Positions 2,710 to 34,331 are shown, counted from the stretch's first letter. The stretch: 64,000 nucleotides of DNA from an uncultured Gammaproteobacteria bacterium (GCA_964355175.1 CAYHBZ010000001.1:304523-368522); one strand, 5' to 3'. The notes: a model not told the origin generated them from the letters alone. Made by a program: numbers and translations.

Positions 2710-4788
2710 TTAGTTAATCAGTTTTTTATTAGTCTTTATCCATTCTACACAAGTATCTTTGGTAAAATTATTACCAGCAGAAACCAATCCATCACAACAA
2801 AAATCTTTTCCGCCACTAACTGTTTCACAGCAGGTGTTACCGGGTTTGGTAGGATCACAAGTTGGAGAAATGCGACTTGGTGTAGTGGCCTGAGTTTTAT
2901 CCGGTCCAAGTCCAGGATAAAAACAATTGAAATGCGCGTCCTCTACCGTGGAACTAACCACCGGCATATAAAATTGATTATCCAAAAAGGTCGGATGTTC
3001 CATAGTTACTGTCTGATAATCCAAATTCAGATAAGGTTTGTGATAAGCTGGGATCCATGGCTTTTCCGGAGTAGACACAGTAGGAAATTCTATCAAATCA
3101 ATTGAACTAAGAGATTCAACTCTCATTCGTTTACTAAACACCATCTCCCATTTTTGATTTTTAACTACATAATCTGAATCTGGCGCCGGAGTGATATTCA
3201 CAAGATAAGGAGCGGTAATATCTATTTCGCTATTAATTTTGAAACTCCAATAATTATTATCTGGAACCAACCAGTTATTAAAAACCGGCAAAGTAGTGGT
3301 GGCGGTCTGAGCGGATCCATTTTTATTACCATCAAGAGCGTTACTAGCCAGATCCGATACGCCAGAAAAAGGCTGAGATTGGAATGTGCCGCCCAAAGTT
3401 TTAGCAGCTTTCAAAAGCAAAGTATATTCGTCTTCATTTAGACAAAAAATATCTCCACCGCAGGCATTCACTCCACATTTGAGCGACGGTGTAAATTCTA
3501 GAGTCCGGTAATTATTTACCAAATTAAAACTGCCGGCCGGTAAAATATTTTTTAAATTTTTTAAATATATATACTGATCCGATCCTAGCTTAGGAGCTTT
3601 ATAATATTTAGCTGTGCCAAAAGTAGATGTCGTAAAATCGCCCTGCAAACCGGTAGGATCAACTGCTTCGGAAAAAGTAATTTGAACTACTGAATTTCTA
3701 GCCTCCCCTTTTGGATTATCGGTAATGCTTTTTGGAAACACATCTACTACGGTTGGCGGAGTCAGATCGAGAGTGTTATTGCACACGAATTGCCAAGAAT
3801 AATAATCGTTGCCAAGATTTTGTTTGTTGAAAATAGATGGATAATTATTTTCAGAATTATTTTCTGCGATCTTTTTACCCAGATTGACAGTATACCCTAC
3901 CGATTCGGTTTCACTGCCCAAATAACCACCGTCAGATAAGGAAGAGTTGGTAATTGGTTTGAGAACCAAAGTAAAATGACCTTGGACATTATTGTAACTA
4001 CTTATTGATGACAAAACTACCAAACCAGTAATTGGCTGATTGCTGTCTGTACGCTTGACATTGATATAATCATCCATTAATTTCGATCCTGTGCCAGAAG
4101 GAGTCGTAGTCGCGTGATCACAATCGGTATTCCAATTAAATGTGGCTTTACCAGTGTTAATACAATCACCAAATGTATTGCTACCGTTGGTATCTACTAC
4201 AAAACTTGGCAGATAAACCGGCTTGGCAAAAGTAATCACAATTTTTGTATTACGCGGCACATCTTTTTGATCACGAGCTGGATAGTGATCTTTGACAACT
4301 TTACCCAAAGCACCACTGCCGGCAAAATTATAATTTTGGCTCGGGGCGGTATTGGTAGTACCTTCCGTACCAAAACCGTCTTTTACTCCAAGCATCTTCA
4401 TAATAAACGCCACGATCGAATAAGCGGATAAAATAATCACCAAACCAATCACGGCATTGCGAATAATACTTTTGGCCTGACCGATCTGATCTTCATTACC
4501 ACCGGCGGTCATCCAAAGATAGCCCGCATATAGTATGAGACATACCAAAACAATCCCGACTAAACCCAAAGCCGCGCGAATAATGTTGGCAATAATAATG
4601 CGAATATCAAAATTCGCCAAACCAAGCGGTTCTTGGATTATTTGCAAACCTTCATTGACGGTGTTCTGAGCTAAAGCGGTATTAAAAGACAAAAAAACCG
4701 CCACTAAAATTGCCCCCAATATAGTGACGGTCTTTAATTTATTGTATTTATTTTTTACGATCCATTGAAGCATGGGACAATGGAACAA
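2710..4788 (-). CDS. Secreted protein with N-terminal TrbC/VirB2-like T4SS pilin domain and a large extracellular C-terminal region; paralog of the upstream gene
   Basis: 692-aa ORF. Signal peptide KTVTILGAILVAVFLSFNTALA. The motif IANIIRAALGLVGIVLVCLILYAGYLWMTAGGNEDQIGQAKSIIRNAVIGLVIILSAYSIVAFIM is a two-helix TrbC/VirB2-type pilin fold. The true start is probably at the MLQW Met (about 4773). Confidence 0.6.
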   Translation of the reverse strand: MFHCPMLQWIVKNKYNKLKTVTILGAILVAVFLSFNTALAQNTVNEGLQIIQEPLGLANFDIRIIIANIIRAALGLVGIVLVCLILYAGYLWMTAGGNEDQIGQAKSIIRNAVIGLVIILSAYSIVAFIMKMLGVKDGFGTEGTTNTAPSQNYNFAGSGALGKVVKDHYPARDQKDVPRNTKIVITFAKPVYLPSFVVDTNGSNTFGDCINTGKATFNWNTDCDHATTTPSGTGSKLMDDYINVKRTDSNQPITGLVVLSSISSYNNVQGHFTLVLKPITNSSLSDGGYLGSETESVGYTVNLGKKIAENNSENNYPSIFNKQNLGNDYYSWQFVCNNTLDLTPPTVVDVFPKSITDNPKGEARNSVVQITFSEAVDPTGLQGDFTTSTFGTAKYYKAPKLGSDQYIYLKNLKNILPAGSFNLVNNYRTLEFTPSLKCGVNACGGDIFCLNEDEYTLLLKAAKTLGGTFQSQPFSGVSDLASNALDGNKNGSAQTATTTLPVFNNWLVPDNNYWSFKINSEIDITAPYLVNITPAPDSDYVVKNQKWEMVFSKRMRVESLSSIDLIEFPTVSTPEKPWIPAYHKPYLNLDYQTVTMEHPTFLDNQFYMPVVSSTVEDAHFNCFYPGLGPDKTQATTPSRISPTCDPTKPGNTCCETVSGGKDFCCDGLVSAGNNFTKDTCVEWIKTNKKLIN

Positions 4789-5102: not shown

Positions 5103-6530
5103 TTATCGCTTATCGTCAAATCGACCCAACTTTCTTTTTAAGACTGTAACTAATTTTTTTTGATCCACGATTTCTTGAATACCGGATTCCATGTCGCGGA
5201 TGATGGCGGTGCCATCTTGCACTTCTTTTTGACCAATAATTACGGTGAAAGGAGCTTTCAAACTATCAGCCAACTCCATCTGACTCTTGAGCGAGGTTTT
5301 GAAAAAATTAAAAGCAATTTTTACTCCAGCACCGCGTAATTGATTTATTAATTTCAAAGTTACGCGACGAGCCTCTTCTCCCAGCTGAGCCACATAGGCA
5401 TCAGTTGGTACTTTTGGCATTTCACGATTATTTTTTTCATTGTATTGTTTGAGCGCCAAAACCGCGCGCTCGAGACCAATCGCCATACCAGCCGCCGGGG
5501 TTGGACGTCCGCCCATTTCTTCTACCAGCAGATCGTAGCGACCACCGCCACCTAAAGCGCTTTGCGATCCTTCTAAATCATCGGCTGGATAAATTTCAAA
5601 TACGGTATTAGTATAATAATTTAAACCGCGGACCAAAGTGTGATCCAATTGATATGGAATTTCAAGCACATCCAAATATTCCAATACTTTCATGAAATGA
5701 TTTTTGCTTTCCGCTCCGAGCCAATTAATAATTTGTGGCGCTTCTTCTTTTACAGTCTGACAGCCTACTTCTTTACAATCGAGCAGACGCATTGGATTTT
5801 TGGTAATACGCTGACGACACTCTTCGCAAAGATAAGAACGCTTACTGCGATAATAATTCACCAATTCATTTTTATAATTAGCGCGCTCAGCCGAAGTACC
5901 AATACTATTTATTTTTATTTCTACCGGCAAACCTAGATCTTTGAAAAAATCATAAGCTACCAAAATCAATTCGGCATCCATGGCTGGATCATTGGACCCA
6001 AAAGTTTCAAAACCAAACTGGTGAAACTGACGATAGCGACCGGCTTGCGGACGGTCATGACGGAACATTGGCCCCCAGTACCACAGCTTGGTAGGCTGAG
6101 GCATATTCCAGAACCCATGCATAATATAAGCACGCACTACGGAGGCAGTCATTTCTGGACGCATGGCTACTTTGGTGGTATCTTTATCTTCAAAAACATA
6201 CATCTCTTTGTCTACAACATCGGTACCTTTACCAATACCACGTACAAACACGCCTACTTCTTCCAAAATTGGGGTTTCAATACGAGCGAATTGAAAATGT
6301 TCGGCCAAATCAGAAATAGATTTATACATCGGCTTCCAATATTTTTCATCCTTTGGCAAAATATCGTGCATACCGCGCAACAACCCATAAGTACGTTTTC
6401 CTTTTTCAACAACGCCTTCTTTTTCTTTAACAGGCTTAGCGGCTTTCACAATCTTTTTCACTTCTGGTTTTTTCATTTTCATTTTTTTATCTTTAGACAT
6501 AAAAGAAGAATTAATATTTTGGAGCTTCAA
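5103..6530 (-). CDS. hisS: Histidine--tRNA ligase
   Basis: Class II aaRS motifs (RPEMTASVVRAY, FRHDRPQAGRYRQFHQFGFE, GGGRYDLLV). The Lys-rich N-terminal extension may be unreal; an internal start is possible. Confidence 0.9.
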   Translation of the reverse strand: MKLQNINSSFMSKDKKMKMKKPEVKKIVKAAKPVKEKEGVVEKGKRTYGLLRGMHDILPKDEKYWKPMYKSISDLAEHFQFARIETPILEEVGVFVRGIGKGTDVVDKEMYVFEDKDTTKVAMRPEMTASVVRAYIMHGFWNMPQPTKLWYWGPMFRHDRPQAGRYRQFHQFGFETFGSNDPAMDAELILVAYDFFKDLGLPVEIKINSIGTSAERANYKNELVNYYRSKRSYLCEECRQRITKNPMRLLDCKEVGCQTVKEEAPQIINWLGAESKNHFMKVLEYLDVLEIPYQLDHTLVRGLNYYTNTVFEIYPADDLEGSQSALGGGGRYDLLVEEMGGRPTPAAGMAIGLERAVLALKQYNEKNNREMPKVPTDAYVAQLGEEARRVTLKLINQLRGAGVKIAFNFFKTSLKSQMELADSLKAPFTVIIGQKEVQDGTAIIRDMESGIQEIVDQKKLVTVLKRKLGRFDDKR

Positions 6531-7116
6531 AAACTTGAATGCGATTTATAGGCCAACCGCGTAGCCAGGTACGACCAACAATGAGACTGGCGTCCACTTT
6601 TCCGAACCGGCGAGAATCAAAACTATTTTCTCGATTATCCCCCATCATGAAATATTGATCTTTGGAAAGTGACATATTTATTTCACCTTCAGTGACAACA
6701 CTTTTTGGGATATAATTTTCTTCAAGCAATAAACCTTCGGGGTGTTCGTTGTTGTAAATAGTTACTTTATTTTCCGAAATTTTTACGCGTTCACCCGGCA
6801 AACCAATCACGCGCTTGAGAAAATATTCTTGGTGATTGTTTGGATATTTAAATACCACGACATCGCCGCGTTTGGGCGTATGCAGACGGTAACTCAACTC
6901 ATCAATAATGAGGTACTCGTGATCATAAAAATTTGGCTCCATGGAAGCGCCTTTGACGTAAAATGGTTTGAAAAGATAATAGCGTACCAGCGCAATCGTA
7001 ATACCGGCCAGCAGAGCAACTTTGATAAATTCCAAAAGTGCTAATCCGGCTCCAGCTAGATAACGACGCAAATAACGCCACAAATTTGAATTAAATTGAT
7101 TTTTTTCGTCAGTCAT
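6511..7116 (-). CDS. lepB: Signal peptidase I
   Basis: N-terminal TM segment; GASMEPNF (Ser box), RGDVVVFKYP, YFLKRVIGLPGE, GDNRENSFDSRRFG. Confidence 0.85.
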   Translation of the reverse strand: MTDEKNQFNSNLWRYLRRYLAGAGLALLEFIKVALLAGITIALVRYYLFKPFYVKGASMEPNFYDHEYLIIDELSYRLHTPKRGDVVVFKYPNNHQEYFLKRVIGLPGERVKISENKVTIYNNEHPEGLLLEENYIPKSVVTEGEINMSLSKDQYFMMGDNRENSFDSRRFGKVDASLIVGRTWLRGWPINRIQVFEAPKY

Positions 7117-7196
7117 AAATATGTTTAGTAGCCAGTATAATACCCCATTTTTTGCCTTTTGGCAAATTTAAAATCCCGAGCATAATCGGGATTTTG

Positions 7197-7270
7197 TGGG
7201 CGATTGAGGAATCGAACCTCAGACCTCGTCATTATCAGTGACGCGCTCTAACCATCTGAGCTAATCGCCC
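7197..7270 (-). tRNA. tRNA-Ile (anticodon GAU)
   Basis: The reverse complement gggcgattagctcagatggttagagcgcgtcactgataatgacgaggtctgaggttcgattcctcaatcgccca folds as a cloverleaf. Anticodon loop is cuGAUaa. Confidence 0.85.
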
Positions 7271-7321
7271 TTTTAATTAAAAAGACTATATCATTTCTCC
7301 CACGAAAAATCAAGACTTCGT

Positions 7322-7395
7322 GGGCGACAGAGGATTTGAACCTCTGACCTTTACAATGTCAATGTAACGCTCTAACCAACTGAGCTAGTCGCCCT
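7322..7395 (-). tRNA. tRNA-Val (anticodon GAC)
   Basis: The reverse complement gggcgactagctcagttggttagagcgttacattgacattgtaaaggtcagaggttcaaatcctctgtcgccca has anticodon stem ttaca/tgtaa and loop ttGACat. Confidence 0.85.
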
Positions 7396-7592
7396 TAAAA
7401 CAGATGGATTGTAGCAGATGTTACTAAAAAAATCAAGATGAGATTGGTTTTAATGTGCTGGTAGCAAAACTGTTCCGAGCGGCCATACGACTGCCGCAGC
7501 GCAACCTGCCAGGGCCTAACTCTGAGGAAAGCGATAAATACTTTTGGTACCGGCAAAAAACCAAAATCTGCGAGATAATGTTACAGGGGAAT

Positions 7593-8561
7593 TTAAAAAA
7601 TTTTTTTCAAATAATTCAATACATAGTCCCTTACGCCATCTTCCAATTCCCAGAATTTATCATGGTAACCCGCATCCCGCAGTAAATTAATTTCTGCTTT
7701 GGTATAATATTGATATTTATCCTTCAAATCTTCGGGCATTTCTATAAATTTAATCTTGGTCTCTTTTTCCAAAGCAGAAAAAATTGCTTTTGCCAAATCA
7801 GAGAAAGATCTGCTTTTCCCAGTACCAACATTAAAGATTCCATTGACGTTTGGATTCTTTAAAAAATATAAAACAACTTTTACCACATCCTTAACATATA
7901 TAAAATCCCTTAGCTGGCCGCCGTTAGAATATTCTTTATTGTAAGATTTAAACAATTTTATTTCATTAGTCTGAACTATTTGTTTGAAACCGTTAAGTAC
8001 TACCGAAGCCATTCTGCCTTTGTGATATTCATAAGGTCCATAAACGTTAAAAAATTTTAGACCCACCCACTGTGGTGGCCGCACTTTTTGCGCTAAAACC
8101 CAAAGATCAAATAAGTGTTTTGATTGGCCATACAAATTCAACGGCTCCAACTCAAAAATATTGTCATCAAAACCACGACTGCCGTCTCCGTAAGTGGCTG
8201 CAGAAGAAGCATATATAAATTGAATGTCTTTCTTCACACAATAATTAAATAGATGCTTACTATATTCATAGTTGGTTTGTAAAATAAAATCCTTATCATC
8301 TTCAGTAGTATCTGAACATGCTCCCATATGTATAATAGCTTTGATGTCAAAAAAATTATCTGATTTTATAGCTAACAAAAATTCATCCCTATCAAAATAT
8401 TTATCATATTTTAAGATTCCCAAATTCTTTCTCTTTGCATCATCAAGCAGATAGTCAACTATTATAATATCGTTGATCAACCCGGCATCATTTAGCGTCT
8501 TGATTATATTGGCACCAATAAATCCAGCCCCTCCTGTGATTATTAATTTGCTATTTGACAT
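7593..8561 (-). CDS. hldD: ADP-L-glycero-D-manno-heptose-6-epimerase (NAD-dependent epimerase/dehydratase family)
   Basis: TGGAGFIG Rossmann motif; MGACSDTTE; YASSAATYG; FNVYGPYEYHKGRMASVV; GIFNVGTGKSRSF. These are collinear with the HldD/RfaD family. Confidence 0.8.
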   Translation of the reverse strand: MSNSKLIITGGAGFIGANIIKTLNDAGLINDIIIVDYLLDDAKRKNLGILKYDKYFDRDEFLLAIKSDNFFDIKAIIHMGACSDTTEDDKDFILQTNYEYSKHLFNYCVKKDIQFIYASSAATYGDGSRGFDDNIFELEPLNLYGQSKHLFDLWVLAQKVRPPQWVGLKFFNVYGPYEYHKGRMASVVLNGFKQIVQTNEIKLFKSYNKEYSNGGQLRDFIYVKDVVKVVLYFLKNPNVNGIFNVGTGKSRSFSDLAKAIFSALEKETKIKFIEMPEDLKDKYQYYTKAEINLLRDAGYHDKFWELEDGVRDYVLNYLKKIF

Positions 8562-8643
8562 ATTTAAAAAACAATAATAACACTTTAATAACTTCTGCCA
8601 GATGATAACCTATCTAAAAAAATAACTTTTTTCATAGAGCAAA

Positions 8644-9951
8644 TTAACTGTCCATTTTTCTACTTTCTTCTAAACGATAAGAATCACTTTCTTCGTGATG
8701 AGTACTTATTTCCAAAATTTCTGATTCATCCAAACCGCCAAAACGATGCTTCACGCCTTGAAAAATCCTCACGAAACTTCCGGGCAACATTTCACTAACA
8801 CTATCACCTACCTCCATACGCACTTTGCCTTTTAGAACTAGAAACATTTCATCTTTATTTTTGTGATAATGCAAACTACATTGAAAACCTTTATTCAAGC
8901 CCAAAATCTTACTACAATAAGAGTCGTTATTTTCCAACCATTTTTCATAGCCCCAGACTTTTTTTACAATAAAAACATCATCGATATGCCTTTGAGTGTT
9001 GGTAAGGACGGAAAGCAGTTCTGATTTATTTATTACCGACGTACCAGATTTTTGGACAACAATTTCACCGGCGCAATTTGACAGATAAGCAGCGGTCTCC
9101 AGGTCCGCCCCAGATAAAATTGAAGCGAACGCGACGGCCGCGATTGTGTCTCCAGCACCCGTAACATCGTATACCTTTACAGCTCTAGCCTTAATTTGTT
9201 TTAAATTCCCTTTTTTATCTGCAAGCAAAATTCCTTCACCACCTAGGGTTAAAAACACATCAGCGTTAAATATTTTTACCAAATTAATCGCTGCGTTGGT
9301 ATATGTATTCTCTCCAGTCATTTCTTGCGCTTCTTTCAAATTGGGACTAAGATAATCAACTCCTTTAAATAACAGATGTCGGCCTGGTTTAATATCAGCG
9401 AAGACTAACTTCTTGTTATTCCTACATAACTCCAACAGACGCTCAACTAAAATAGGAGCAAACAAACCCTTGGCATAATCCGATATCATTACACCATCAA
9501 CATTTTCAATTACTTTTGATATTTTATTTATAAACTCTTCAACTTCTGTTTCAGGTATATCATTGGTGTCTTCAATATCTACTCTCAGCAGTTGCTGACC
9601 TGTAGCCACAAAACGATGTTTAACCGTTGTAGGATATTTGGAAGAACTTATTATGCCTGAATAATCAATACCAACTTCTGACAACATTTCCAAAATTTTT
9701 TTTCCAAAAAAATCGGATCCAACGATACCAGCTAAAAAGACCTGCACCCCCAAAGCTGAAAAATTATTGGCCACATTAGCCCCACCGCCCAGTCGATAAT
9801 AGTCGTCTTTATTCTTTCTAAGAACCGAAACTGGCGCCTCCGGTGAAATTCTTTGAACTTCTCCATTCGTATATACATCCAACATGATATCACCTATAAC
9901 TAAAATTTTTTTATCCTTAAATTTCTCTAATATTTGGGCTATACTTAGCAT
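8644..9951 (-). CDS. D-beta-D-heptose 7-phosphate kinase-like domain (HldE domain I, PfkB family) fused to a C-terminal cupin domain
   Basis: N-terminal about 320 aa: ILVIGDIMLDVY..RISPEAPV, ISDYAKG, DVTGAGDT (RfaE/HldE kinase). C-terminal about 110 aa: WGYEKWL...HYHKNKDEMFLVLKG...GVKHRF is a cupin metal-site pattern. No adenylyltransferase domain is present. Confidence 0.7.
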   Translation of the reverse strand: MLSIAQILEKFKDKKILVIGDIMLDVYTNGEVQRISPEAPVSVLRKNKDDYYRLGGGANVANNFSALGVQVFLAGIVGSDFFGKKILEMLSEVGIDYSGIISSSKYPTTVKHRFVATGQQLLRVDIEDTNDIPETEVEEFINKISKVIENVDGVMISDYAKGLFAPILVERLLELCRNNKKLVFADIKPGRHLLFKGVDYLSPNLKEAQEMTGENTYTNAAINLVKIFNADVFLTLGGEGILLADKKGNLKQIKARAVKVYDVTGAGDTIAAVAFASILSGADLETAAYLSNCAGEIVVQKSGTSVINKSELLSVLTNTQRHIDDVFIVKKVWGYEKWLENNDSYCSKILGLNKGFQCSLHYHKNKDEMFLVLKGKVRMEVGDSVSEMLPGSFVRIFQGVKHRFGGLDESEILEISTHHEESDSYRLEESRKMDS

Positions 9952-10040
9952 AAAATTCTATTTCTACGTACTAATTTTACTTTATAATTTATAATTAATA
10001 CCCTATAATTATAACGCTAAAAACTGCCGAGGTCAATATG

Positions 10041-10072
10041 AAAATCAAAAAATCAGCTTGGTAGCTGATTTT
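10041..10072 (-). terminator. Putative intrinsic terminator downstream of the 16S rRNA
   Basis: Hairpin aatcagct-tggt-agctgatt followed on the minus strand by a U-run. Confidence 0.4.
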
Positions 10073-10073
10073 C

Positions 10074-10185: not shown

Positions 10186-11734
<1,549 letters not shown>

Positions 11735-11837
11735 TAAAAAAAGAGAATGATAAGCTCGGAAAAATTCCGAACTATTATTTGTTTTGTTGTTGAATAGACA
11801 GATTTTTAAATATATAAATTTTACTTTATATACTTAT

Positions 11838-11865
11838 GGTCTTTGTCACATTTATGTTGTCAAGG
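11838..11865 (-). promoter_or_regulatory. 5' half of the pre-16S processing stem (RNase III-type stalk)
   Basis: Complementary to 10074-10102 across the mature 16S. Confidence 0.5.
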
Positions 11866-12039
11866 TTCATTCTTTCCTTTTGAAGCCCAGATAAGGCTTC
11901 GACAAAGAAAGAAAAAAGAGGAAGCCATTTTGACTTACTCTTTTCTCTTTCCAGTATCGTCCGAAATTTCCGGTAGACTTAGAAAAATGATTTGATTTTG
12001 AGGTACAATTTGGAGGTAGGTTTTTTCAAAAGCTTTTAC

Positions 12040-12068
12040 ATAATAGCATAAGGTAAAAACCCTGTCAA
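12040..12068 (-). promoter_or_regulatory. Probable rRNA promoter with consensus sigma70-type hexamers
   Basis: The minus strand reads cTTGACAgggtttttaccttatgcTATTATg, i.e. TTGACA, a 17-nt spacer, then TATTAT. It lies about 300 nt upstream of the 16S 5' end. Confidence 0.45.
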
Positions 12069-12097
12069 GGGCGGAAAAATGGCTTGGTTGTGGATAA

Positions 12098-12754
12098 TTA
12101 GCGACTTTCGCCTTTACGCCAATCCCTTATTTTTTTATGGTCTCCAGAAAGAAGAATTTTGGGCACTTTTAGGCCCATAAAATTTTCCGGACGGGTATAT
12201 TGAGGGTATTCAACAATTCCATCTTCAAAGGTTTCTTCTTTGAGCGAATCACTGTTGCCGAGAACTCCCGGCAATAAACGCGATACAGCTTCGATAATAA
12301 CCAGGGCTGGCAATTCGCCGCCCGCTAACACATAGTCCCCGACAGACACCCGATCATCCACAAATTTATAGACACGCTCGTCAAAGCCTTCATAGCGACC
12401 ACTGATGATGACCAGATTATCTAGTTTAGAAAATTGTTTGGCCATTTTTTGATCAAACTTTTTTCCATCCGGATCCATGATAATTATTTTGGTTTTTGGT
12501 TGTTTTATTTTTTTGCCATTTTTTACCAAATCCATATTTTCTAGAGTGAGATAAATTGGCTCTACTTGTAGTACCATACCAGCTCCCCCACCGTATGGTT
12601 TATCGTCGACATGGCGTTGCTTATCCAAAGTAAAATCACGAAAATTATGAGTAATAATTTCTATTAGTTCCTTATTTTGCGCACGCCCCAAAATACTATC
12701 TTGGCAATAGTGATGAATCAGATCTGGAAAAATTGTGAGAATGCTAAATTTCAT
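12098..12754 (-). CDS. trmD: tRNA (guanine37-N1)-methyltransferase
   Basis: MKFSILTIFPDL..., DDKPYGGGAGMV, SPOUT-fold TrmD motifs. Confidence 0.9.
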   Translation of the reverse strand: MKFSILTIFPDLIHHYCQDSILGRAQNKELIEIITHNFRDFTLDKQRHVDDKPYGGGAGMVLQVEPIYLTLENMDLVKNGKKIKQPKTKIIIMDPDGKKFDQKMAKQFSKLDNLVIISGRYEGFDERVYKFVDDRVSVGDYVLAGGELPALVIIEAVSRLLPGVLGNSDSLKEETFEDGIVEYPQYTRPENFMGLKVPKILLSGDHKKIRDWRKGESR

Positions 12755-12919: not shown

Positions 12920-15900
12920 TTATTTTACATTGAAATCAAAGCTATTCTCGGCAAGCACCACATTCTTGCTATCGAGTACTTTCACTTTTGCAGTGTAGGT
13001 ACCGGTAGCTAATTTCTTGCTCAAAGAGCTGGTAGCATTGAATTTAACGGCTTGACCTTTGGATAGCGTGCGGGTTCCGTCAACCTCACCCACTACTTTG
13101 CCATTGGCATCTACTACCTGGCGAACGATTTTTACTTTTACTGGTTTACCAGTTTCGTTCTTATAGGAGTAGGTGTACTTCACAGCACTGCCTGGTTTAT
13201 AATCAACTTTTAATCCGGTGATCACCACTTTGGAATCTGGATTATTGGTAGAAATTGAAGGTGGAGGCAGAGGTTTCTTTACAGTTACATCAAAGCTGTT
13301 TTCACCCAAAAGCTTATTTTTGGAATCCATTACTTTAACTTTGATAGTGTAGTTGCCGTCAGCCAATTTACTGCTTAGTAAATTGCTAGCGCTTGACTTA
13401 AAGGTCTTGCCTTTAGCAATCGAAGCGCTGCTATTTACCTGAGCCACTACTTTACCATTAGCATCGAGCACCTGGCGTGCTACTTTAATCTTTAAAGTAG
13501 CACTATTTTCATTCTTAAAGGAATAAGTGTAAGCAACTGAGCTGTTTGGAACATATTGCAATTTCTTTACTGGTAATATCACCAACTTGGAACCAGGATT
13601 GGAAAGAGTAAAGATTGTTACATTGGAAGAATTAGAGGATCCTACATTGGAAGATTCAGGTAAAGTGGTTAGAGCAGAAGCTTCTTTTAAACCTACAGTT
13701 ACTTGATAAATGGTGCTTAAAGCTCCAGTAGCTGAACGGAATCTGATGTTTAGTGTCTTTTGACCATCACCGGCAGACAACGCAAATACCTTGGTAGTGG
13801 CGTATAGTTCCCACACAGCGCCTACGAAAGCAGAGTCTTCGGAGATTATCATATCTTTAGCGTTGAAAGCTGAAAGATTGATAGTGATATTTCTAGAAGA
13901 TACTGAGGAAGGATTACCTGGTAAGCTGACGGAAACTTTCGAAGGAGCCGAACCAGCACCACTGGTAACACCACCACCGCCGCCGCTTGATCCACTACTA
14001 ACACTTACAGTGTTGCCAGTAAAGGTAGCGGAGTCAGATCCGGTATCAGTAGAATCTTTACTATCGGTAAAGGCAAGAGAAACAGTACCGTTTCCAGAGA
14101 CCTGGAACAATCCATCATTATTTGTTTTAGCACTAGCTACAGAGAAAATATTACCACTGCTTTGGAAGATACCGGTACTAGCACCAGTTTCAGTCAAAGT
14201 GATTGTTTCAGAGTCACTATAAGTATCGGAAGTGACAGTTACAGTCATAGTATCAGCAGAAGTAGTCAGGTTGGCGTCAGTATCTACTACTTTCAAATAC
14301 ACAGAACTAGCGGCAGTAGCATAGGTACTAGCGGCAGTACCAGCACCGTCTACGAAGTCAACCGAGGCAAGTGGGTGAACAATAGCGCCAGTTTCAGTGA
14401 CTGTACCAGTATTAGTAAAGGTGCCAGGAGCGTATAGAGTGTAGCTAGAACCGATAGTCAAAGAACCGGCATTGGTAATACTATCAGTAGAAGTGGTGTT
14501 ACCGGCCAAAGTATAGGTGCCGGCACCAAGAACTAAGCCCCAATATCTTTCAGCTGCTGGGGTTACAGAACCAGTACCAGTGTATCTTACAGTAGAGCTG
14601 GCCGAAGTAAATGTACCACTGTTAACAAAAGCGGTAGTACTGCTAGGGAAAGTCAAGGTAAAACTAGAACCATTTAAAGTCTTGCCGGAATTAATTGTAA
14701 GCACATTACTGACAGTGGTCGAACCAGACAAGGTGCCAGATGTGCCGTTGTTAACAACTAAATTCCAGTAAGTGGTGGAGGCGATGGTGGAGGTGGCACC
14801 GGAGAAGACTACAGTGGAGGTGCTGGCAGTGAAGGTACCGTTGCTTAATAATGGAGTGCCTGTACCGGTGAAGGTTAGGGTCTTGCCATTGGCGTCTAAA
14901 GTTTTTCCAGAGTTAATGGTTAAGACATTGCTGACGGTGGTGTAGCCACCTAATGTACCGGCAGTGCCGTTATCTACAGTCAAATTGTAATAGGTGGTGG
15001 AGGCAATAGTAGCAGTAGCACCGGAATAGACGACAATGGAGGTGCTGGCAGTGAAGGTACCGTTATTAACTAATGGGATACCGGTACCACTTAGAGTAAG
15101 AGTATAACTGCTTGCATCTAAAACCTTGCTGGCATTAACAGTTAGGACATTGCTGACTGTAGTGGAACCAGTTAAGAGGGCAGTCCCGGCGTTGTTAATA
15201 ACCAAATTAAAGTAAGTTGTGGAGGCAACGTCGGGTCCTGTAACACTATTTGAATAGGTAAAGGTAGAACTACCGGCGTTAAATGTGCCGTTATTAATAA
15301 ACGTAGAAGCGTTGTTACCTGTAACTTCTAAAGTACTTGTACCAGCATTAAAAACCGCGCCGCTGTTAATTCTGATACCAGTATTCCCTCCTGCTTGCAA
15401 TCCACCGTATACGGTTGAGCTAGCTGAATCAACCGTCACAGTATAAAAGGTACCGGAGGCCATATTTACACCATTACCAGTATATCTAATAAGTAAATTA
15501 CTAAAATTTGAAGCACCCGTATTATTAACAAACGGAGTTCCTGTGGCAGCTAAAGTAAGATTTTCAATACCTGGCTCCAAGATCGAAGGGGTACCCACAG
15601 TAAATAAATTATTTACTGTAGTACTACCTGTAATAGTGTTGGAAGTGGCACCATTCAAAGTCAAGTTGTAGTAGGTGGTAGAAGCAACGTTGGCGGTGGC
15701 ACCGGAGAAGACTACGGTAGAGGTACTGGCGGTGAAGGTACCGTTGCGTAAAAACGGAGTGCTGGTACCGGTCAATGCCAGAGTATAGCCGTTGGCATCC
15801 AAAGATTTAGTGGAGCTAACAGTAAGTACATTGGTGGTGGTCACATTACCGGCTAAAGTACCGGCAGTGCTGATTAATAGGTTGTAGTAGGAAGCAGAGG

Positions 15901-17338
15901 TGATTGGTTGGGTACTACCACCACCGTAGACCACAGTCGAAGTGCTGGCAGTAAAGGTACCACTTTGTGTAAATGGTGTGATACCTAACAAACTGATCGT
16001 GTATCCATTGGCGTCCAATACAGCGCCACTGCTAATTACAAGATTGTTCATTTCTACTATACCCGCCAATACGGCGGCAGTTGAATCGATTTGTAGACCG
16101 TAGTAGGTAAGGTTAGCGGCAACATTAGTAGCGCCGACACCGGAATATCTGACTACACCATTACTGGTAAGAGTACCAGTTTTAACAAGCGGAGTACCAG
16201 TGCCAGATAAATTCAAAGTGAAGCTAGAAGTATCGAGTGTCTTGCTGGCATTAATAGTCAATACACTACTGACAGTAGTAGAGCCAGACAGTGTACCTGA
16301 GGTGCCATTATCAACAGTCAAATTATAATAGGTGGTGGAGGCGATGGTGGCAGTAGCACCGGAGTATTTAACGGTAGAACCGCTTGGAACAAAAGTACCA
16401 TTTCGCACAAATGGAGTGCTCGTACCAGGCAAATTTATTGTACTTCCTGAATGGCCTGTTAAACTACCTGAGCTACCTATAGTAAGAATATTAGTAGTAG
16501 TAACATTAGAAGTTCCTGCTGTAGACAAAGTTACAGATCCATTTATAGTTAAATTATAAGGCACAAATCTACCTGAAGTTATACCACTATCACCAATTAA
16601 CTTTCCAGTACCAGTCATTGTTACAGTACCTGAAGTTTGAATCAAAGTACCTGGTGATAATATACTTCCTCCAACATTTAGATTAAAGGTAGATAAATCA
16701 AAAACTCTCAGTGAATTAACAGTAAGATCGTTGGTAGTTGTAACACTACTACCAAGCGTGGTATCATCGGCAATAGTAAGGTTGTAAAAATTTATTGATC
16801 CAGGGCCGCTAATAGTTTTAGTAAGACCGGACATCGTGAGAGTACCAACTGTTTGGCTAAGAGTAGTAGTGACATTAACATTACCAGACACATTAATTGT
16901 TCCAGTGGCGTTAAATGCAGTTCCGCCTAATCTCAGATCAACAACAGCCAAAGTACCGCCTACCTGAAAAGTACCGGCGTCTTGTGCAAAACTACCAGTG
17001 CCAGTAAGGGTTACGCCTGAATTAATATTAATAGTTCCGGTATATGTAGAATCCATTGATATGCCGGCAGTAGTTGTACTGACATCAAAAACAGCATTGG
17101 TAGTAGTTCTAGCTCCATTAAAAAACAAATCTTTACCGGTCAGAGTAGTACACGCTGCACCAACTCCACCGATAGTATCTTCCCAATTAGTAAGAGTTGA
17201 AGCCAGCTGAGAACTGCTCGCAGTCCAAGTACAAAAAGCCGCACTTGCCTGCTGACCAAAAAACATTGAGGAGAGCAGAAGTGCTGACCCCACTAAGAGT
17301 AGTTTAGACCTACTCAGAAATGACACATTCGTATTCAT
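12920..17338 (-). CDS. Giant (1472 aa) Thr/Ser/Gly-rich repetitive surface protein (adhesin-like) with two C-terminal tandem Ig-like domains
   Basis: Signal peptide MNTNVSFLSRSKLLLVGSALLLSSMFFGQQASA. More than 10 degenerate ~75-aa repeats (..TVSNVLTINSGKTLDANGKTLTFTGTGTPL..NGTFTASTSTVVFSGATATIASTTYYNLT..). C-terminus has two ~100-aa repeats (..YKPGSAVKYTYSYKNETGKPVKVKIVRQVVDANGKVV..). Confidence 0.6.
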   Translation of the reverse strand: MNTNVSFLSRSKLLLVGSALLLSSMFFGQQASAAFCTWTASSSQLASTLTNWEDTIGGVGAACTTLTGKDLFFNGARTTTNAVFDVSTTTAGISMDSTYTGTININSGVTLTGTGSFAQDAGTFQVGGTLAVVDLRLGGTAFNATGTINVSGNVNVTTTLSQTVGTLTMSGLTKTISGPGSINFYNLTIADDTTLGSSVTTTNDLTVNSLRVFDLSTFNLNVGGSILSPGTLIQTSGTVTMTGTGKLIGDSGITSGRFVPYNLTINGSVTLSTAGTSNVTTTNILTIGSSGSLTGHSGSTINLPGTSTPFVRNGTFVPSGSTVKYSGATATIASTTYYNLTVDNGTSGTLSGSTTVSSVLTINASKTLDTSSFTLNLSGTGTPLVKTGTLTSNGVVRYSGVGATNVAANLTYYGLQIDSTAAVLAGIVEMNNLVISSGAVLDANGYTISLLGITPFTQSGTFTASTSTVVYGGGSTQPITSASYYNLLISTAGTLAGNVTTTNVLTVSSTKSLDANGYTLALTGTSTPFLRNGTFTASTSTVVFSGATANVASTTYYNLTLNGATSNTITGSTTVNNLFTVGTPSILEPGIENLTLAATGTPFVNNTGASNFSNLLIRYTGNGVNMASGTFYTVTVDSASSTVYGGLQAGGNTGIRINSGAVFNAGTSTLEVTGNNASTFINNGTFNAGSSTFTYSNSVTGPDVASTTYFNLVINNAGTALLTGSTTVSNVLTVNASKVLDASSYTLTLSGTGIPLVNNGTFTASTSIVVYSGATATIASTTYYNLTVDNGTAGTLGGYTTVSNVLTINSGKTLDANGKTLTFTGTGTPLLSNGTFTASTSTVVFSGATSTIASTTYWNLVVNNGTSGTLSGSTTVSNVLTINSGKTLNGSSFTLTFPSSTTAFVNSGTFTSASSTVRYTGTGSVTPAAERYWGLVLGAGTYTLAGNTTSTDSITNAGSLTIGSSYTLYAPGTFTNTGTVTETGAIVHPLASVDFVDGAGTAASTYATAASSVYLKVVDTDANLTTSADTMTVTVTSDTYSDSETITLTETGASTGIFQSSGNIFSVASAKTNNDGLFQVSGNGTVSLAFTDSKDSTDTGSDSATFTGNTVSVSSGSSGGGGGVTSGAGSAPSKVSVSLPGNPSSVSSRNITINLSAFNAKDMIISEDSAFVGAVWELYATTKVFALSAGDGQKTLNIRFRSATGALSTIYQVTVGLKEASALTTLPESSNVGSSNSSNVTIFTLSNPGSKLVILPVKKLQYVPNSSVAYTYSFKNENSATLKIKVARQVLDANGKVVAQVNSSASIAKGKTFKSSASNLLSSKLADGNYTIKVKVMDSKNKLLGENSFDVTVKKPLPPPSISTNNPDSKVVITGLKVDYKPGSAVKYTYSYKNETGKPVKVKIVRQVVDANGKVVGEVDGTRTLSKGQAVKFNATSSLSKKLATGTYTAKVKVLDSKNVVLAENSFDFNVK
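14600..16450 (-). repeat. Intragenic tandem coding repeats (about 225-bp units) inside the adhesin gene
   Basis: Recurring blocks such as ggtggtggaggcgatggtggaggtggcaccggagaagactacagtggaggtgctggcagtgaaggtaccgtt at about 14780, 15000, 15690, 15900 and 16330. Confidence 0.5.
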
Positions 17339-18464: not shown

Positions 18465-21400
18465 TTAGCTGGTTTTGTCAACATTTTCCTGGTCGGCGTA
18501 CTTCCCGATCTCGCCGATATTCACACTCAGTAGCTTGGAAACACCTTCGCCGCCCATAGTCACCCCGTAGAGCGCGTCGGCCGAGTGCATAGTGACGCGG
18601 TTGTGGGTAATCACGATAAATTGAGATTTGGCGGCCAATTCACTCATAATATTGGCAAAACGCAGAGTGTTGGCTTCATCGAGCGCCGCTTCAACTTCAT
18701 CCATTACTACAAATGGAGATGGGTTGCAGTTTAATATGGCGCAGATTAGCGCTATCGAGGTAAGGGTGCGTTCACCGCCCGACAGAGAGCTGATATTTTT
18801 TATTTTCTTACCGGGTGGGTTTACGATAATATCAATACCGGTAAGAATTTTATCGCGTTTTTTGTTTTTCAATACACCACCATTGTCATCCCCGTGAAAA
18901 CGGGGATCTTGGATTCCCGCTTCCGCGGGAATGACAGAGCCGTCGTTTGAAATGACATTACCATTGGCATCCAACATTTCTTCGCTTTCCGGTTCGCCAT
19001 AAATTTCTTCAAGCTGTGCTCCCCCACCATTAAATAATATTTGAAAATAACGATCAAATTCTTTGCGAATTTGTTTAAAGGCTTGTGAGCGTTTTTTCTT
19101 CATGATTTCGTCGAGTTCTTCGATCATCTTAGACAGATCCCCCACCGCTTTGGTCAAATCTTCCAGTTGACTGGAGAGAAAATCATAACGTTCTTTGGTG
19201 GTTTCGTATTCTTTCACTACTTCTTCATCAATACCACCAATCAAACTAAGCTGATATTTAAATTTAGAAATTGAATCCGCCACCTGATCCAGATCCACTT
19301 GAGAAAGCACACTATCCCAGCGTTCAGAGATACTCAAAAGCGAAGAACTGAGCTCATTATTGGCTTCATTATTTAGATCTTCATTTTTGGTTTCAATTTT
19401 AGCCAATTGAATCTTGAATTCATTGCGGCTACTCAGAATTTCATTAACTTCCGTCTGTTTTTTCTGCATTACTTCTTGCAAAGCAAACACGCGCTGTTTT
19501 TTAATTTCTTCCGCGTCATTAAAATTCTTTATTTCAGTAGCAATTTCCAAAATATCTTTCTCGCTGTTTTCAATTTCCGCTTTTACTTTATTTCTTTCCA
19601 CTTCCAAATCTTTCAGATGTTCGCCATACTCCTGCGGACTCATGCGAATAAAATTCAATTCTTTTTCCATCTGCACAAATTCGGCACTCTGCGAATCGCG
19701 CTGAGTGTGCAAAGCAATTAATTGATTTTGAGATTTTTCTTTTTCCATCTGGGCCAAAAGCTGGTCGGTCTTGGCTTTATCGAGTTGTATTTCTAAATCA
19801 CGGAAAATTTGTTCTTGTTTTATCAATTCTTCTTGATAATTAAAACCGGCATTTTCCGCAAAAGAAGTACTGCCGGAAAAACTCAAATGCATTCTTTTTT
19901 GTCCACGGAAACCACCTTTCATTACACCCCGTTTTTCCGCCACATCACCATCCAGAGTAACATAACGAATACGGCCGATACCCAAGCGTTGGGCCACAGC
20001 CAAATTTTTCACTATCAAGGTGTCGCCCAGGATAAATGAAAAAACATTACGAAATTTTTCATCAAATTTCACCAGATCAATCGCCAAACCAAATACGCCG
20101 TCTTCGTTTACTAGATTCTGGGCTTCGTAGCTTTCATTACGACCCACGATTTTATTAATCGGCAAAAAGGTGGCCACACCCATTTTTTCTTCACGCAAAA
20201 ATTCAATGGCGTTTTTGGCCACACTTTCATCAGCCACTACCAGCGATGATAAATTCGCGCCGGCGGCCACTTCCAGAGCGGTACGGTATTCATCCTGCAC
20301 TTCACCCAGCTCGGCCACCAGGCCATATACTTTTCCCAATCGATTTTTGTTTTCCAAAACTGAGCGTACGGCCGTAAGACCACTAAGCTCCAGATACTGA
20401 CGCTCGCTTTTTTGTTCAAATTGTTTGGTTTGCAATTGTGACAGACGCACCGCCGCCTGAGTTTTTTCGCGCGCCAAATCTTGCACCATCGCATTTTTTT
20501 GCGCGAACAATTTTTCCGCTTTCGAAATTTCCGCTTCAATGGACGCGCTATCACGATTTAATTTTTCTTTTTGAATCTGCAATTCCGCCACTTTATTTTC
20601 CAACCAACCGATATTTTGCTTGCCCAAATCACTATAGGCGTTTTGAATTTTGCCGGATAATATGGCCAACTCACGCTCCCAATCATTTTTAATTTTTACA
20701 GCCGCTTGATGTTTTTCTTGTAATTTTACAAACACTTCCTGACGACTTTCCGCGCGCGCCAAATCCGACAATTCATTCTGCACCGTTTCCAATTCTTTAA
20801 AAGCAATACGATAATTTTCATCCAATTCTTTTATGGTTTTATCCAGCTTATCCATCTCAGTTTTATTGCTCCAATATAGCGATCCATAGTATTTTTCTTG
20901 AGCTTCACGCAAATTTATTTCCACTTCATGGCGCTGTTCCAATTTACGGACCTGTTTGGAAAGCAGACGCAAACGCGGCTCTACTTCTTTGAGCAATGTA
21001 TCCACCTGCTTCATATTATCCTCTGTCCGCGCCAATTTCAGGCTGGCCTGGTGGTGTTTGATTTGATATTCCTTTATACCGGAAGCTTCATCCAAAAAAT
21101 CTTTACGCTCGGCTGGTGTCACCGTCAACATTTTGTCTATTGTCCCCTGACCGACTATACTATAAGAGTGCTGGCCAAACTGTGCCTTGGCAAGCAAAAG
21201 ATGGATATCCAGCATGCGCACCGGATTACTGTTTATGAGATACTCACCTTCGCCACTGCGATATAGACGGCGCGTAATCACCACTTCTTCGGCTTCAATA
21301 TCCGCGCGATTATCAGAATTATCGAGTACCATCGAAATTTCGCAAGCACCCAGTGCTCCGCGCGCTGCCGAGCCACCAAAAATAATATCTTCGCTCTTTT

Positions 21401-31766: not shown

Positions 31767-33635
31767 TTATTTAGTTTGATTTTCAAATTCTTGTTTGGCG
31801 CGTTCGATCTCAAGCAACTGCTGCGGGTTGGTGGTCACCAGCTGATCTTCGGTATACGAAGCCACGATCTTGATAGCGGCATGTTTGAGACCGGCAAAAA
31901 ATATTCCTTCACCCGGAGCACTCTCCAACAATAAATATTTTTCACTATCCGTAAGCATGAAAACTTTTTGAATGTTGTCCACGGCGGCCGGAGATTGGCG
32001 GAGCAACAATTGCAAAGCCGAATTGGTCACAATCGCCTGTCCGTATTGGGAATGCAAGAAATCATTTACATCCTGCGTAATAGTCGTGACACCCAAATAA
32101 TATTTACGACAGCGTTTCACCAAAGCAAAAATAAATCTGGCGGAATCTTCGTGTTGCATCAGCCACCAGGCTTCATCAATTACGAGCACGCGCTTGCGAC
32201 GCTCGGAGCGCACCGTGTTCCAAATATAATTGATAATCGCGTAAATAGCGAGCGGACGCAATTCATCTTCCAAATCACGCACACTATACACCACCAACTG
32301 ATTTTTCATTTCCACATTGGTTGGCGAATTGAATAGTCCACTAAAAGTACCTTCGGTATATTTTTTCAATTTTAATACCAATTCGTTCGAGCCTTCCATA
32401 CCTTCGAGCACTTCCTGCAAATCTTGCATGATTGGCGCTTCGACAGTATTGAGATCCACACCGGATACGATATCTTTTTTGGCGTAAGTTTCGATGAGCG
32501 CTCTATCGATTACCGAATCCTGCTCAGTAGTAATACCACCAAGCATAATACGGAGTAATCCTTTCACAGTAATAACCGCGCTACGAATAATATCGTCGAC
32601 AGACAAATCCTGCTCCATTGGGCGAGGCAGATCAAATGGATTTACTTTACTCTCACTGCTCAAAGAAATATTAATATAAGTACCACCGACCGCGTCAGAG
32701 AGATGTTTATATTCCATTTCCGGATCAATCACAATCACTTCCAGGCCCATCATGAGAGAGCGCAAAATTTCCAATTTAATGGCATAGCTTTTACCGGCAC
32801 CGGAAGTAGCAAATACTACCATATTGGCATTCTGCATCGAAAAACGATCAAACAAAATCAAACTATTGTTGTGACGATTGATTCCGTACAAGATACCATT
32901 ATCGGAAGTAAGCTCGGCAGAAATAAATGGAAAAGACGCGGCAATCGGCGATGAATTCATGTTGTAGGAAATCATCAATTCATCATTGCACAGCGGCAAA
33001 GTAGAATTAAAACCTTGCTCAGCTTGATACAATACTTTGCGACTCATGATCAATTTACTGCCAAAAATACTTTCGATATCTTCGGATAACTGATCCAATT
33101 TTTCTTTATTTTTGGTATAAATAGTGACATAAAAAGCAAACTGAAAAAAGTGCTCTGTCCCCTGGGTTAGATTGTCGCGCAAGCCTTCAATATCACGCAA
33201 AGCGGTCTCACGAATTGGATCACGCGGCGCGCCCTTTTCGGCATCGGCGCTAATCTGCGCTTCGAGCGCACCTACTTTATTTTTTAATTGTTTCAAAATA
33301 ATTTCGGCTTTAATCGGATAAAAGAACATTGAAATATCCATATTCACCGACAAACCAATCACGGGAGAGCTCCAACCCACGGAAATATAACGCGGATAAT
33401 TCATGATGAAAAGCGTACGACAAAAAGTGGTGCCAAGCTGGATAAAATTGGACTCAATATTAAAAGCCGCCGGCGCGATAATATCACGCAACGACACCAC
33501 GCCCTCACGATAGACCTGCTCTTCTTGCAGAGTAATGAGTTCGGCAGCGGTAGCTTTTTCTAACTTGCTTTTATCTTTACTACCCAAACTCGCTTTATCG
33601 TTTTGTTTGGCAATGAATTGTGGTTTAAAGGCCAT
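31767..33635 (-). CDS. virB4: VirB4/TrbE/CagE-family type IV secretion ATPase, C-terminal portion
   Basis: LGTTFCRTLFIMNYPRYISVGW (VirB4 region), Walker A VFATSGAGKSY, Walker B VLVIDEAWW, GVTTITQDVNDF. Confidence 0.8.
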   Translation of the reverse strand: MAFKPQFIAKQNDKASLGSKDKSKLEKATAAELITLQEEQVYREGVVSLRDIIAPAAFNIESNFIQLGTTFCRTLFIMNYPRYISVGWSSPVIGLSVNMDISMFFYPIKAEIILKQLKNKVGALEAQISADAEKGAPRDPIRETALRDIEGLRDNLTQGTEHFFQFAFYVTIYTKNKEKLDQLSEDIESIFGSKLIMSRKVLYQAEQGFNSTLPLCNDELMISYNMNSSPIAASFPFISAELTSDNGILYGINRHNNSLILFDRFSMQNANMVVFATSGAGKSYAIKLEILRSLMMGLEVIVIDPEMEYKHLSDAVGGTYINISLSSESKVNPFDLPRPMEQDLSVDDIIRSAVITVKGLLRIMLGGITTEQDSVIDRALIETYAKKDIVSGVDLNTVEAPIMQDLQEVLEGMEGSNELVLKLKKYTEGTFSGLFNSPTNVEMKNQLVVYSVRDLEDELRPLAIYAIINYIWNTVRSERRKRVLVIDEAWWLMQHEDSARFIFALVKRCRKYYLGVTTITQDVNDFLHSQYGQAIVTNSALQLLLRQSPAAVDNIQKVFMLTDSEKYLLLESAPGEGIFFAGLKHAAIKIVASYTEDQLVTTNPQQLLEIERAKQEFENQTK

Positions 33636-33638
33636 ATT

Positions 33639-34325: not shown

Positions 34326-34331
34326 ATAAAA

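Follow-up and report, generated by a model that had tools for sequence, protein, structure and literature searches.

In the canonical heptose enzyme HldE, a heptose-7-phosphate kinase domain is fused to an adenylyltransferase. A 64,000-nucleotide stretch of DNA recorded under an uncultured Gammaproteobacteria bacterium (GCA_964355175.1, CAYHBZ010000001.1:304523-368522; hereafter the window) encodes a kinase of this type that ends in a cupin domain instead. The locus raises the question of what a cupin does in a protein of ADP-heptose synthesis. The gene lies on the minus strand at 8644..9951 (stop codon counted), starts with ATG and encodes 435 aa, as given by the list of open reading frames (ORFs), Pfam, NCBIfam and the homologues. 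An earlier interpretation made from this DNA alone, which we call the sequence-only reading, had proposed the cupin as a substitute for the sedoheptulose-7-phosphate isomerase GmhA, and this is the best-supported interpretation of our data. We consider it probable that the cupin is a non-homologous analogue of GmhA, because it is fused to several ADP-heptose enzymes, occurs in operons which are short only of the isomerase, nearly excludes GmhA of the SIS fold, and resembles isomerases that form manno-configured sugars.

The kinase domain comprises residues 1-317 (9001..9951, minus strand). It matches PfkB (PF00294) at residues 14-306 with an E-value of 1.1e-45. Its top NCBIfam match is TIGR02198 (rfaE_dom_I) with 296.3 bits, which is under the equivalog cutoff of 345 bits; TIGR02198 is still the best family by far, and the next unrelated kinase family, ribokinase, reaches 91 bits. 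The nearest solved structure to this part is Burkholderia HldA (4e84, E 8e-42), while fructokinase is matched at 9e-13. The motifs ISPEAPV (residues 35-41, within the RISPEAPV signature), SDYAKG (157-162) and DVTGAGDT (262-269) are all located. The last one contains the GAGD anion hole with the catalytic Asp268, and Gly265, Ala266, Gly267 and Asp268 are invariant across 57 homologues. The prediction that this domain is an HldA-type heptose-7-phosphate kinase which phosphorylates O1 is well supported by these comparisons. The bifunctional HldE model NF008454 is aligned over its positions 3-318 of 475 only, and neither a PF01467 nor an rfaE_dom_II adenylyltransferase domain is found in the fusion protein in Pfam and NCBIfam scans. 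Thus, the adenylyltransferase half is absent.

The C-terminal domain (residues 318-435; 8647..9000, minus strand) is the candidate sedoheptulose-7-phosphate isomerase. Cupin_2 (PF07883) is matched at residues 353-405 with an E-value of 1.3e-9 and 38 bits against a cutoff of 27.2. Residues 355-375 follow the canonical cupin motif 1, G(X)5HXH(X)4E(X)6G, which includes the stretch HYHKNKDE at 361-368, and His402 is found within GVKHRF. His361, His363, Glu368 and His402 form the full His/His/Glu/His set of putative metal ligands. The AlphaFold2 model of the full-length protein has a pLDDT of 93.4 and a pTM of 0.81; the model of the cupin alone is all-beta with a pLDDT of 96.2. The sequence-only reading was therefore right that a kinase-cupin fusion replaces the adenylyltransferase half, with PfkB and Cupin_2 found, PF01467 absent and every motif that it quoted present.

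The fusion belongs to a family of at least 120 cluster representatives. PfkB is joined to Cupin_2 in all of the best 120 database relatives (45-58% identity, full coverage), so neither a frameshift nor an assembly artefact accounts for the fusion. About 100 of these 120 also carry a precomputed match to PF01050, the C-terminal family of type II phosphomannose isomerase (PMI). Over 119 homologues, the mean identity to the query is 62% in the cupin and 44% in the kinase domain. About 30 cupin positions are invariant, including the four putative ligands. Several basic residues are among the invariant ones (Lys331, Lys348, Lys366, Arg403 and Arg426), and Trp333, Gly334, Glu336, Glu414, His419 and Asp423 are also conserved. 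Such conservation suggests that the cupin domain is strongly constrained and presumably catalytic.

Outside this fusion, the same cupin is widespread. A HMMER search with the cupin alone returns 3,648 cluster representatives, of which 1,021 have E<1e-10. Stand-alone proteins of 105-150 aa with 45-55% identity make up the majority. The family signature can be written as KxWGxExW...YCxK...SLHxHxxKDE...HRF...STHHxxxDxxR. Several members are fused to heptose enzymes in other arrangements. The order is cupin-kinase in P0137, P0177, P0250, L066 and L068, kinase-adenylyltransferase-cupin in P0129, cupin-kinase-adenylyltransferase in L093 and adenylyltransferase-cupin in P0163. In L033 (9980-11236), a Nanoarchaeia contig, one 419-aa ORF joins the cupin (residues 29-84) with an HldD-like epimerase (residues 125-411).

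We scanned the GTDB representative genomes for the cupin and assigned its neighbours with hidden Markov models built in this analysis. The scan gives 80 loci, 79 with an intact cupin. They come from the candidate phyla radiation (CPR), DPANN (Woese-, Pace-, Nano- and Aenigmatarchaeota), Bdellovibrionota/Oligoflexia, Planctomycetota and Verrucomicrobiota. The 79 cupins are found as 24 kinase-cupin fusions, three cupin-kinase fusions (one of them also with HldC), one cupin-HldD fusion and 51 stand-alone proteins. Within 10 kb of them, we find an HldA-type kinase in 63 loci, HldC in 50, GmhB in 42, HldD in 37 and a glycosyltransferase of family 9 (GT9) in 36; the complete set of five occurs in 24 loci. 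The gene order in CPR clusters is kinase-cupin, HldC-GmhB, HldD and GT9 heptosyltransferase. Here HldC-GmhB is a protein of 335-350 aa whose two parts are an adenylyltransferase of rfaE_dom_II type and a phosphatase of GmhB type, and the HldD proteins score 384-401 bits. These clusters are surrounded by GT1, GT2, GT4, PMT_2, Wzy_C and flippase genes. In DPANN the operon typically opens with the stand-alone cupin and has the order cupin-HldD-HldA-GmhB-HldC, with GT9 upstream.

The cupin clusters thus encode kinase, phosphatase, adenylyltransferase, epimerase and transferase, and the isomerase is the step that is missing. No GmhA-like SIS ORF is present within 10 kb in 77 of the 79 cupin loci, including all 24 complete clusters. 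A reciprocal sample of 80 GmhA-like loci was fetched from metagenomes. An HldA/HldE kinase adjoins GmhA in eight of these, for example in the order GmhB-HldD-HldE-GmhA at L195; the kinase is canonical in all eight, and the cupin family is absent from these eight loci. In operons, either GmhA or the cupin thus occupies the isomerase slot, and almost never both.

A further line of evidence is the type of cupin. In a Pfam scan of 101 members of the cupin family (matches at E<=1e-3), Cupin_2 is matched by 92, D-lyxose isomerase (PF07385) by 75 with a best E-value of 1e-10, and the type II PMI C-terminal family by 67 with a best E-value of 1e-13. Two members match FdtA (PF05523) and seven weakly match AraC_binding, while RmlC-type (PF00908) is matched by none of the 101. 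The specific family matches are thus to sugar isomerases and not to a non-sugar family, an outcome on which the sequence-only reading had made its proposal depend. PF07385 reaches 14.9 bits on the window protein, under the gathering threshold of 20.8, and the matches of its relatives to this family indicate remote relatedness only. In GMP/PMI enzymes the type II PMI domain follows an N-terminal mannose-1-phosphate guanylyltransferase (GMP) domain, whereas the partner here is a PfkB kinase; TIGR01479 gives only 17 bits over the C-terminal part of the fusion, and no SIS or SIS_2 Pfam match is found in the window protein. PMI and the lyxose/mannose isomerases convert a 2-ketose to a manno-configured aldose. 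The same stereochemistry is needed for the GmhA reaction, in which sedoheptulose-7-phosphate is converted to D-glycero-D-manno-heptose-7-phosphate.

Several observations speak against a GmhA-like function or leave room for another one. The score of PF01050 on the window cupin alone is 23.5 bits, just under the gathering threshold of 23.6, and falls to 19.9 bits (residues 329-415) on the full protein. The best Foldseek match is the Thermococcus cupin PMI 7zvy (E 4e-8, TM 0.77-0.82); hundreds of cupins score almost like it among 749 PDB cupin matches, and the fold is not discriminating. The top PDB match by sequence is quercetin dioxygenase, which is found via the generic metal motif, and no close characterised relative appears; 7zvy and then the D-lyxose isomerase 2y0o follow in the sequence and profile searches. 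We therefore rejected an assignment of the cupin from solved structures, which gave generic cupins only with an indecisive fold. Furthermore, fused enzymes need not catalyse consecutive steps, as HldE joins steps 2 and 4, and the frequent adjacency of cupin and HldD would fit a role in modifying nucleoside diphosphate (NDP)-heptose too. No heptose gene is found within 10 kb of 13 of the 79 cupins. A weak HldC-cupin ORF is found in one GmhA locus, L210, and GmhA-like SIS ORFs lie at a distance of a few kb from the kinase-cupin fusion in two of the 79 loci, L014 and L016, both from CPR. In addition, gmhA is unlinked from other heptose genes in E. coli, and our gmhA scans covered +/-10 kb.

Some of these exceptions can be described further. 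The 13 orphan cupins are stand-alone DPANN proteins with uninformative housekeeping neighbours, e.g. GyrA, nucleoside deoxyribosyltransferase, ACT and SET. The SIS proteins at L014 (17375-17986) and L016 (16261-16893, with companions at 11294-12310 and 18843-19499) are divergent, scoring 86-95 and 44-56 bits against GmhA cutoffs of 209-320. An HddA-like GHMP kinase is found near both SIS genes, and L016 also has a second GmhB. These SIS genes may belong to a parallel alpha-type route like that to GDP-heptose.

Among the alternatives, the one that survives best is nevertheless unlikely. Here the cupin would be an NDP-heptose tailoring enzyme, i.e. a CapF-, RmlC- or FdtA-like epimerase or ketoisomerase, which acts together with an HldD-like short-chain dehydrogenase/reductase (SDR) on ADP-heptose or a keto intermediate, and a SIS GmhA encoded elsewhere would give heptose-7-phosphate. 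Indeed, cupin and HldD are direct neighbours in the window, and the same holds for DPANN operons and many phage loci; in L033 the two are fused. A nucleotidyltransferase, an SDR and a cupin together make the classic deoxysugar layout, many phage loci have no kinase near the cupin, and the CapF cupin domain is among the fold matches, which are many and generic. However, the family scan gives no RmlC-type and two FdtA matches in 101 members, against 67-75 for the PMI and lyxose isomerase families. The commonest fusion partner is the kinase that acts on the product of the isomerase, and by their scores the neighbouring HldD proteins are ordinary ADP-heptose 6-epimerases, for which no partner is needed. 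With a tailoring function, moreover, none of the 24 otherwise complete clusters would encode the isomerase step, and the exclusion between GmhA and the cupin in operons would be unexplained.

It is quite improbable that the cupin is an ordinary PMI, which converts fructose-6-phosphate to mannose-6-phosphate and either feeds the kinase for ADP-mannose-type products or serves GDP-mannose synthesis, in which case the fusion would be for co-regulation only. The similarity to PF01050, the archaeal cupin PMI as best fold match and the JGI label of one relative ('mannose-6-phosphate isomerase-like protein') would agree with such a function. Yet the conserved HldD scores above the TIGR02197 cutoff and would lack its target stereocentre in ADP-mannose, which makes this product disfavoured; the kinases match HldA/rfaE_dom_I best, the partners include GT9 heptosyltransferases, and no GMP (NTP_transferase) domain is present as a partner in the fusions. 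A non-catalytic module that regulates the kinase as a metabolite sensor or oligomerisation domain is very improbable. The cupins of AraC-type regulators do bind ligands, and seven of the 101 members weakly match AraC_binding, but the full His/His/Glu/His site, the roughly 30 invariant residues and a conservation exceeding that of the catalytic kinase speak against such a module, and the occurrence as stand-alone operon genes and in phages would be unexpected for it.

A second heptose locus, L001, bears on the other steps of the pathway. The window protein, its paralogue P0007 at L001 (53% identity), the window HldD and an HldC-GmhB fusion are all recorded on a 953,736-bp contig with the same three sources. 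L001 thus belongs to the genome of the window, and one organism carries two kinase-cupin genes. The first copy adjoins hldD in the window; the second adjoins hldC-gmhB, a GT9 gene and two Wzy_C proteins. In detail, L001 (1-19329) encodes two large Wzy_C-domain proteins (one with TPR), P0007, the HldC-GmhB fusion at 11321-12370 and the GT9 heptosyltransferase, and further a methyltransferase, a UbiA prenyltransferase and an HpnA-like SDR. This SDR is not HldD, so the window hldD is the only HldD of the two loci examined. Homology of the L001 genes supports the view that the remaining ADP-heptose steps are encoded in the genome of the window. A canonical hldE elsewhere, which the sequence-only reading had named, together with a separate gmhA, as evidence against itself, is not what we find in this genome; a second kinase-cupin and HldC-GmhB are found instead. 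Its suggestion of nucleotide-heptose synthesis in an organism that probably lacks lipopolysaccharide (LPS) gains support from HldC-GmhB and GT9 at L001 and from a prior remark on Paceibacteria (PMC9166423).

In the mechanism that we propose, the fusion would be bifunctional and catalyse steps 1 and 2 of ADP-heptose synthesis. The cupin would bind a divalent metal via His361, His363, Glu368 and His402 and isomerise sedoheptulose-7-phosphate to D-glycero-D-manno-heptose 7-phosphate by metal-assisted aldose-ketose chemistry, as the cupin phosphomannose, phosphoglucose and lyxose isomerases do. The PfkB domain is predicted by strong homology to phosphorylate O1 with ATP, yielding the beta-1,7-bisphosphate, and the fused kinase may pull the equilibrium of the isomerase. 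By homology and context, HldC-GmhB encoded at L001 would remove the 7-phosphate and perform the adenylylation, the HldD adjacent to the fusion would epimerise C6, and the GT9 heptosyltransferase would move the heptose onto a non-LPS acceptor.

The gene hldD (7593..8561, minus strand) encodes ADP-glyceromanno-heptose 6-epimerase with 409.9 bits for TIGR02197 against a cutoff of 274.6. It begins 82 nt downstream of the fusion gene, in agreement with the immediate adjacency given in the sequence-only reading. A consensus scan finds no terminator-like site in the 82-nt gap, and the two genes are probably co-transcribed. A promoter-like site TTGACC-17-TATAAT (10008..10036, minus strand), a consensus match only with 11 of 12 positions, lies 57 nt upstream of the ATG. 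The same type of scan places a terminator-like hairpin with a T-run at 10048..10073 (minus strand), between the 16S rRNA gene (10186-11741, minus strand) and the heptose genes, and the kinase-cupin gene lies 234 nt downstream of 16S. The genes for tRNA-Val(GAC) and tRNA-Ile(GAU) follow hldD at 7196-7394 (minus strand). The order is therefore 16S, its own terminator-like hairpin, the promoter-like site, the two heptose genes and the two tRNA genes. As no 23S or 5S gene is found anywhere in the 64-kb window, the rRNA operon is unlinked, with protein genes between 16S and the tRNAs.

No gmhA, gmhB, hldC or heptosyltransferase gene is found in the window by Pfam scans, which covered every sizeable ORF. 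The rest of it encodes housekeeping functions, giant surface proteins and a set resembling type IV secretion. The secretion-like set lies at 31767-34784 and 2710-4788 and encodes a TraG/VirB4-type P-loop ATPase and TraC-like and PrgI-like proteins; a 692-aa protein with T4SS-pilin and Big_5 domains is part of it. Giant repetitive Ser/Thr-rich surface proteins are encoded near this set (12920-17338, 37993-42189, 43756-51705 and 55996-62847). One may speculate that these proteins are glycosylated with heptose, the hint being the two Wzy_C-domain proteins by L001; Wzy_C proteins beside such a locus would fit a role as ligase, polymerase or O-oligosaccharyltransferase. The GC content is 32.4% in hldD, 36.9% in the fusion gene and 40.8% in the whole window. 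At 55-58% identity, the homologues closest to the fusion come from loci of the other type, those with hldC-gmhB. Since the heptose genes are AT-richer and the nearest homologues lie in the other locus type, the kinase-cupin copy in the window may be a horizontally acquired or relocated paralogue. The homologues of the fusion bear Parcubacteria/Paceibacterota labels, and the organism of the window is therefore a CPR bacterium.

Cupin relatives are also encoded on 325 viral contigs in IMG/VR. Among the best 80 of these 325 loci, HldC-like proteins are found near the cupin in 43, HldD-like in 28, HldA-type in eight and HddA-like in six, and GmhA is never near it. The phage loci comprise L094-L173 (IMG/VR contigs) and L008 (10001-11934). 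A Logan contig with PolB and a primase carries the cupin together with a CTP-transferase-like gene and an HddA-like kinase. The gene contents of these loci suggest that phages encode a heptose-nucleotide synthesis which uses the cupin.

The DPANN loci show several further features. At L053 (9108-9914, minus strand), at L071 (3644-4411, minus strand) and in other loci, GT9 and the cupin operon are separated by a conserved, divergently transcribed ORF of about 255-275 aa. It has a ribbon-helix-helix-like N-terminus (KIAISxDxSLLxLVDSKVDGSxIRSRSQAIE) followed by a sugar-1-phosphate NTP_transferase domain and may be either a regulator-enzyme fusion or a second nucleotidyltransferase of the cluster. 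At L088 of Nanoarchaeota (5274-8674), genes resembling glucokinase, 6-phosphogluconolactonase and 6-phosphogluconate dehydrogenase, as judged from N-terminal sequences, lie between GT9 and the cupin operon and may link the pentose-phosphate supply to heptose synthesis. The GyrA of a Nanoarchaeia contig (L036, 10350-14144) has an intein (PF14890) within its topoisomerase domain. We also checked HldC for the STTR5 arginine. At position 5 we find I, S, K or Y instead of R, so there is no pointer to CDP- or UDP-heptose; the link between this arginine and CTP/UTP promiscuity is attributed to Tang et al. (PMC11461863).

It is reasonably likely that this cupin family as a whole is an unrecognised sedoheptulose-7-phosphate isomerase and that full ADP-heptose pathways exist in many CPR, DPANN, some Bdellovibrionota and hundreds of phages. 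No publication that ties a cupin to sedoheptulose-7-phosphate isomerisation or to ADP-heptose synthesis was found in PMC or bioRxiv. ADP-heptose synthesis in Paceibacteria has been noted earlier (PMC9166423), and in the supplement of that paper the KEGG module M00064 is marked 'x, TIGR' in one column. We read this column as Paceibacteria and the mark as an incomplete module with TIGRFAM matches present; this reading is our own and is not stated in the paper. According to commentaries on Tang et al. (Science 2024), heptose enzymes come in mono-, di- and tri-domain forms of isomerase, kinase and nucleotidyltransferase; a cupin is absent from these accounts (PMC11573728, PMC11461863). The RmlC-like C3/C5 epimerases that take part in GDP-heptose modification in Campylobacter (PMC7949155) belong to a different cupin family.

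If the assignment is true, a pathway hole would be closed in CPR, DPANN and phage genomes. Surveys based on gmhA, e.g. with KEGG M00064, would under-count ADP-heptose producers and call complete pathways incomplete. ADP-heptose is an innate-immune agonist (ALPK1-TIFA), and GmhA is regarded as an antibacterial adjuvant target. The carriers in CPR, DPANN, Bdellovibrionota and phages would be potential producers of this ALPK1 agonist and users of heptose in non-LPS glycans. Surface glycans that contain heptose are also suggested for organisms lacking LPS. Moreover, two genes, kinase-cupin and HldC-GmhB, would provide four activities of the pathway and would be handy for the enzymatic production of ADP-heptose, provided that the cupin is the isomerase.

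What we describe is a predicted non-homologous replacement of GmhA in an undescribed fusion architecture, spread across CPR, DPANN and phages, and it can be compared with several known systems. GmhA (LpcA, TIGR00441) has the same proposed reaction and the same slot in ADP-heptose clusters as the cupin. However, GmhA has the Rossmann-like SIS fold, whereas the cupin is a beta-barrel with a His/His/Glu/His site; the claim is thus one of analogy and not of homology. HldE and HldA share the HldA-type PfkB kinase with the window protein. The fusion of steps has a precedent, which includes the tridomain type of isomerase, kinase and nucleotidyltransferase attributed to Tang et al. 2024 (PMC11573728). 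In HldE the C-terminal domain is a cytidylyltransferase-like adenylyltransferase, while here a cupin takes its place and the adenylyltransferase is fused to GmhB in a separate protein. Type II PMI (PF01050), the archaeal cupin PMIs (7zvy, 7zvm) and the D-lyxose/D-mannose isomerases (PF07385, 2y0o) share the cupin fold, the metal site and the predicted manno-type aldose-ketose outcome. The structures of these PMIs and lyxose isomerases are only 14-22% identical to the window cupin with marginal scores, and the partners of the cupin are heptose enzymes and not a GMP domain. A precedent for the proposed evolutionary event is the cupin phosphoglucose isomerase (PGI) of Pyrococcus and Thermococcus (PF06560), in which a cupin has displaced a classical sugar-phosphate isomerase non-orthologously. 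It differs from the present cupin in both family and substrate, and no PF06560 match is seen here. The kinase-cupin fusion would then represent a non-orthologous displacement of the same kind at the committed step of heptose-nucleotide synthesis, like that of the cupin PGI against the classical PGI.

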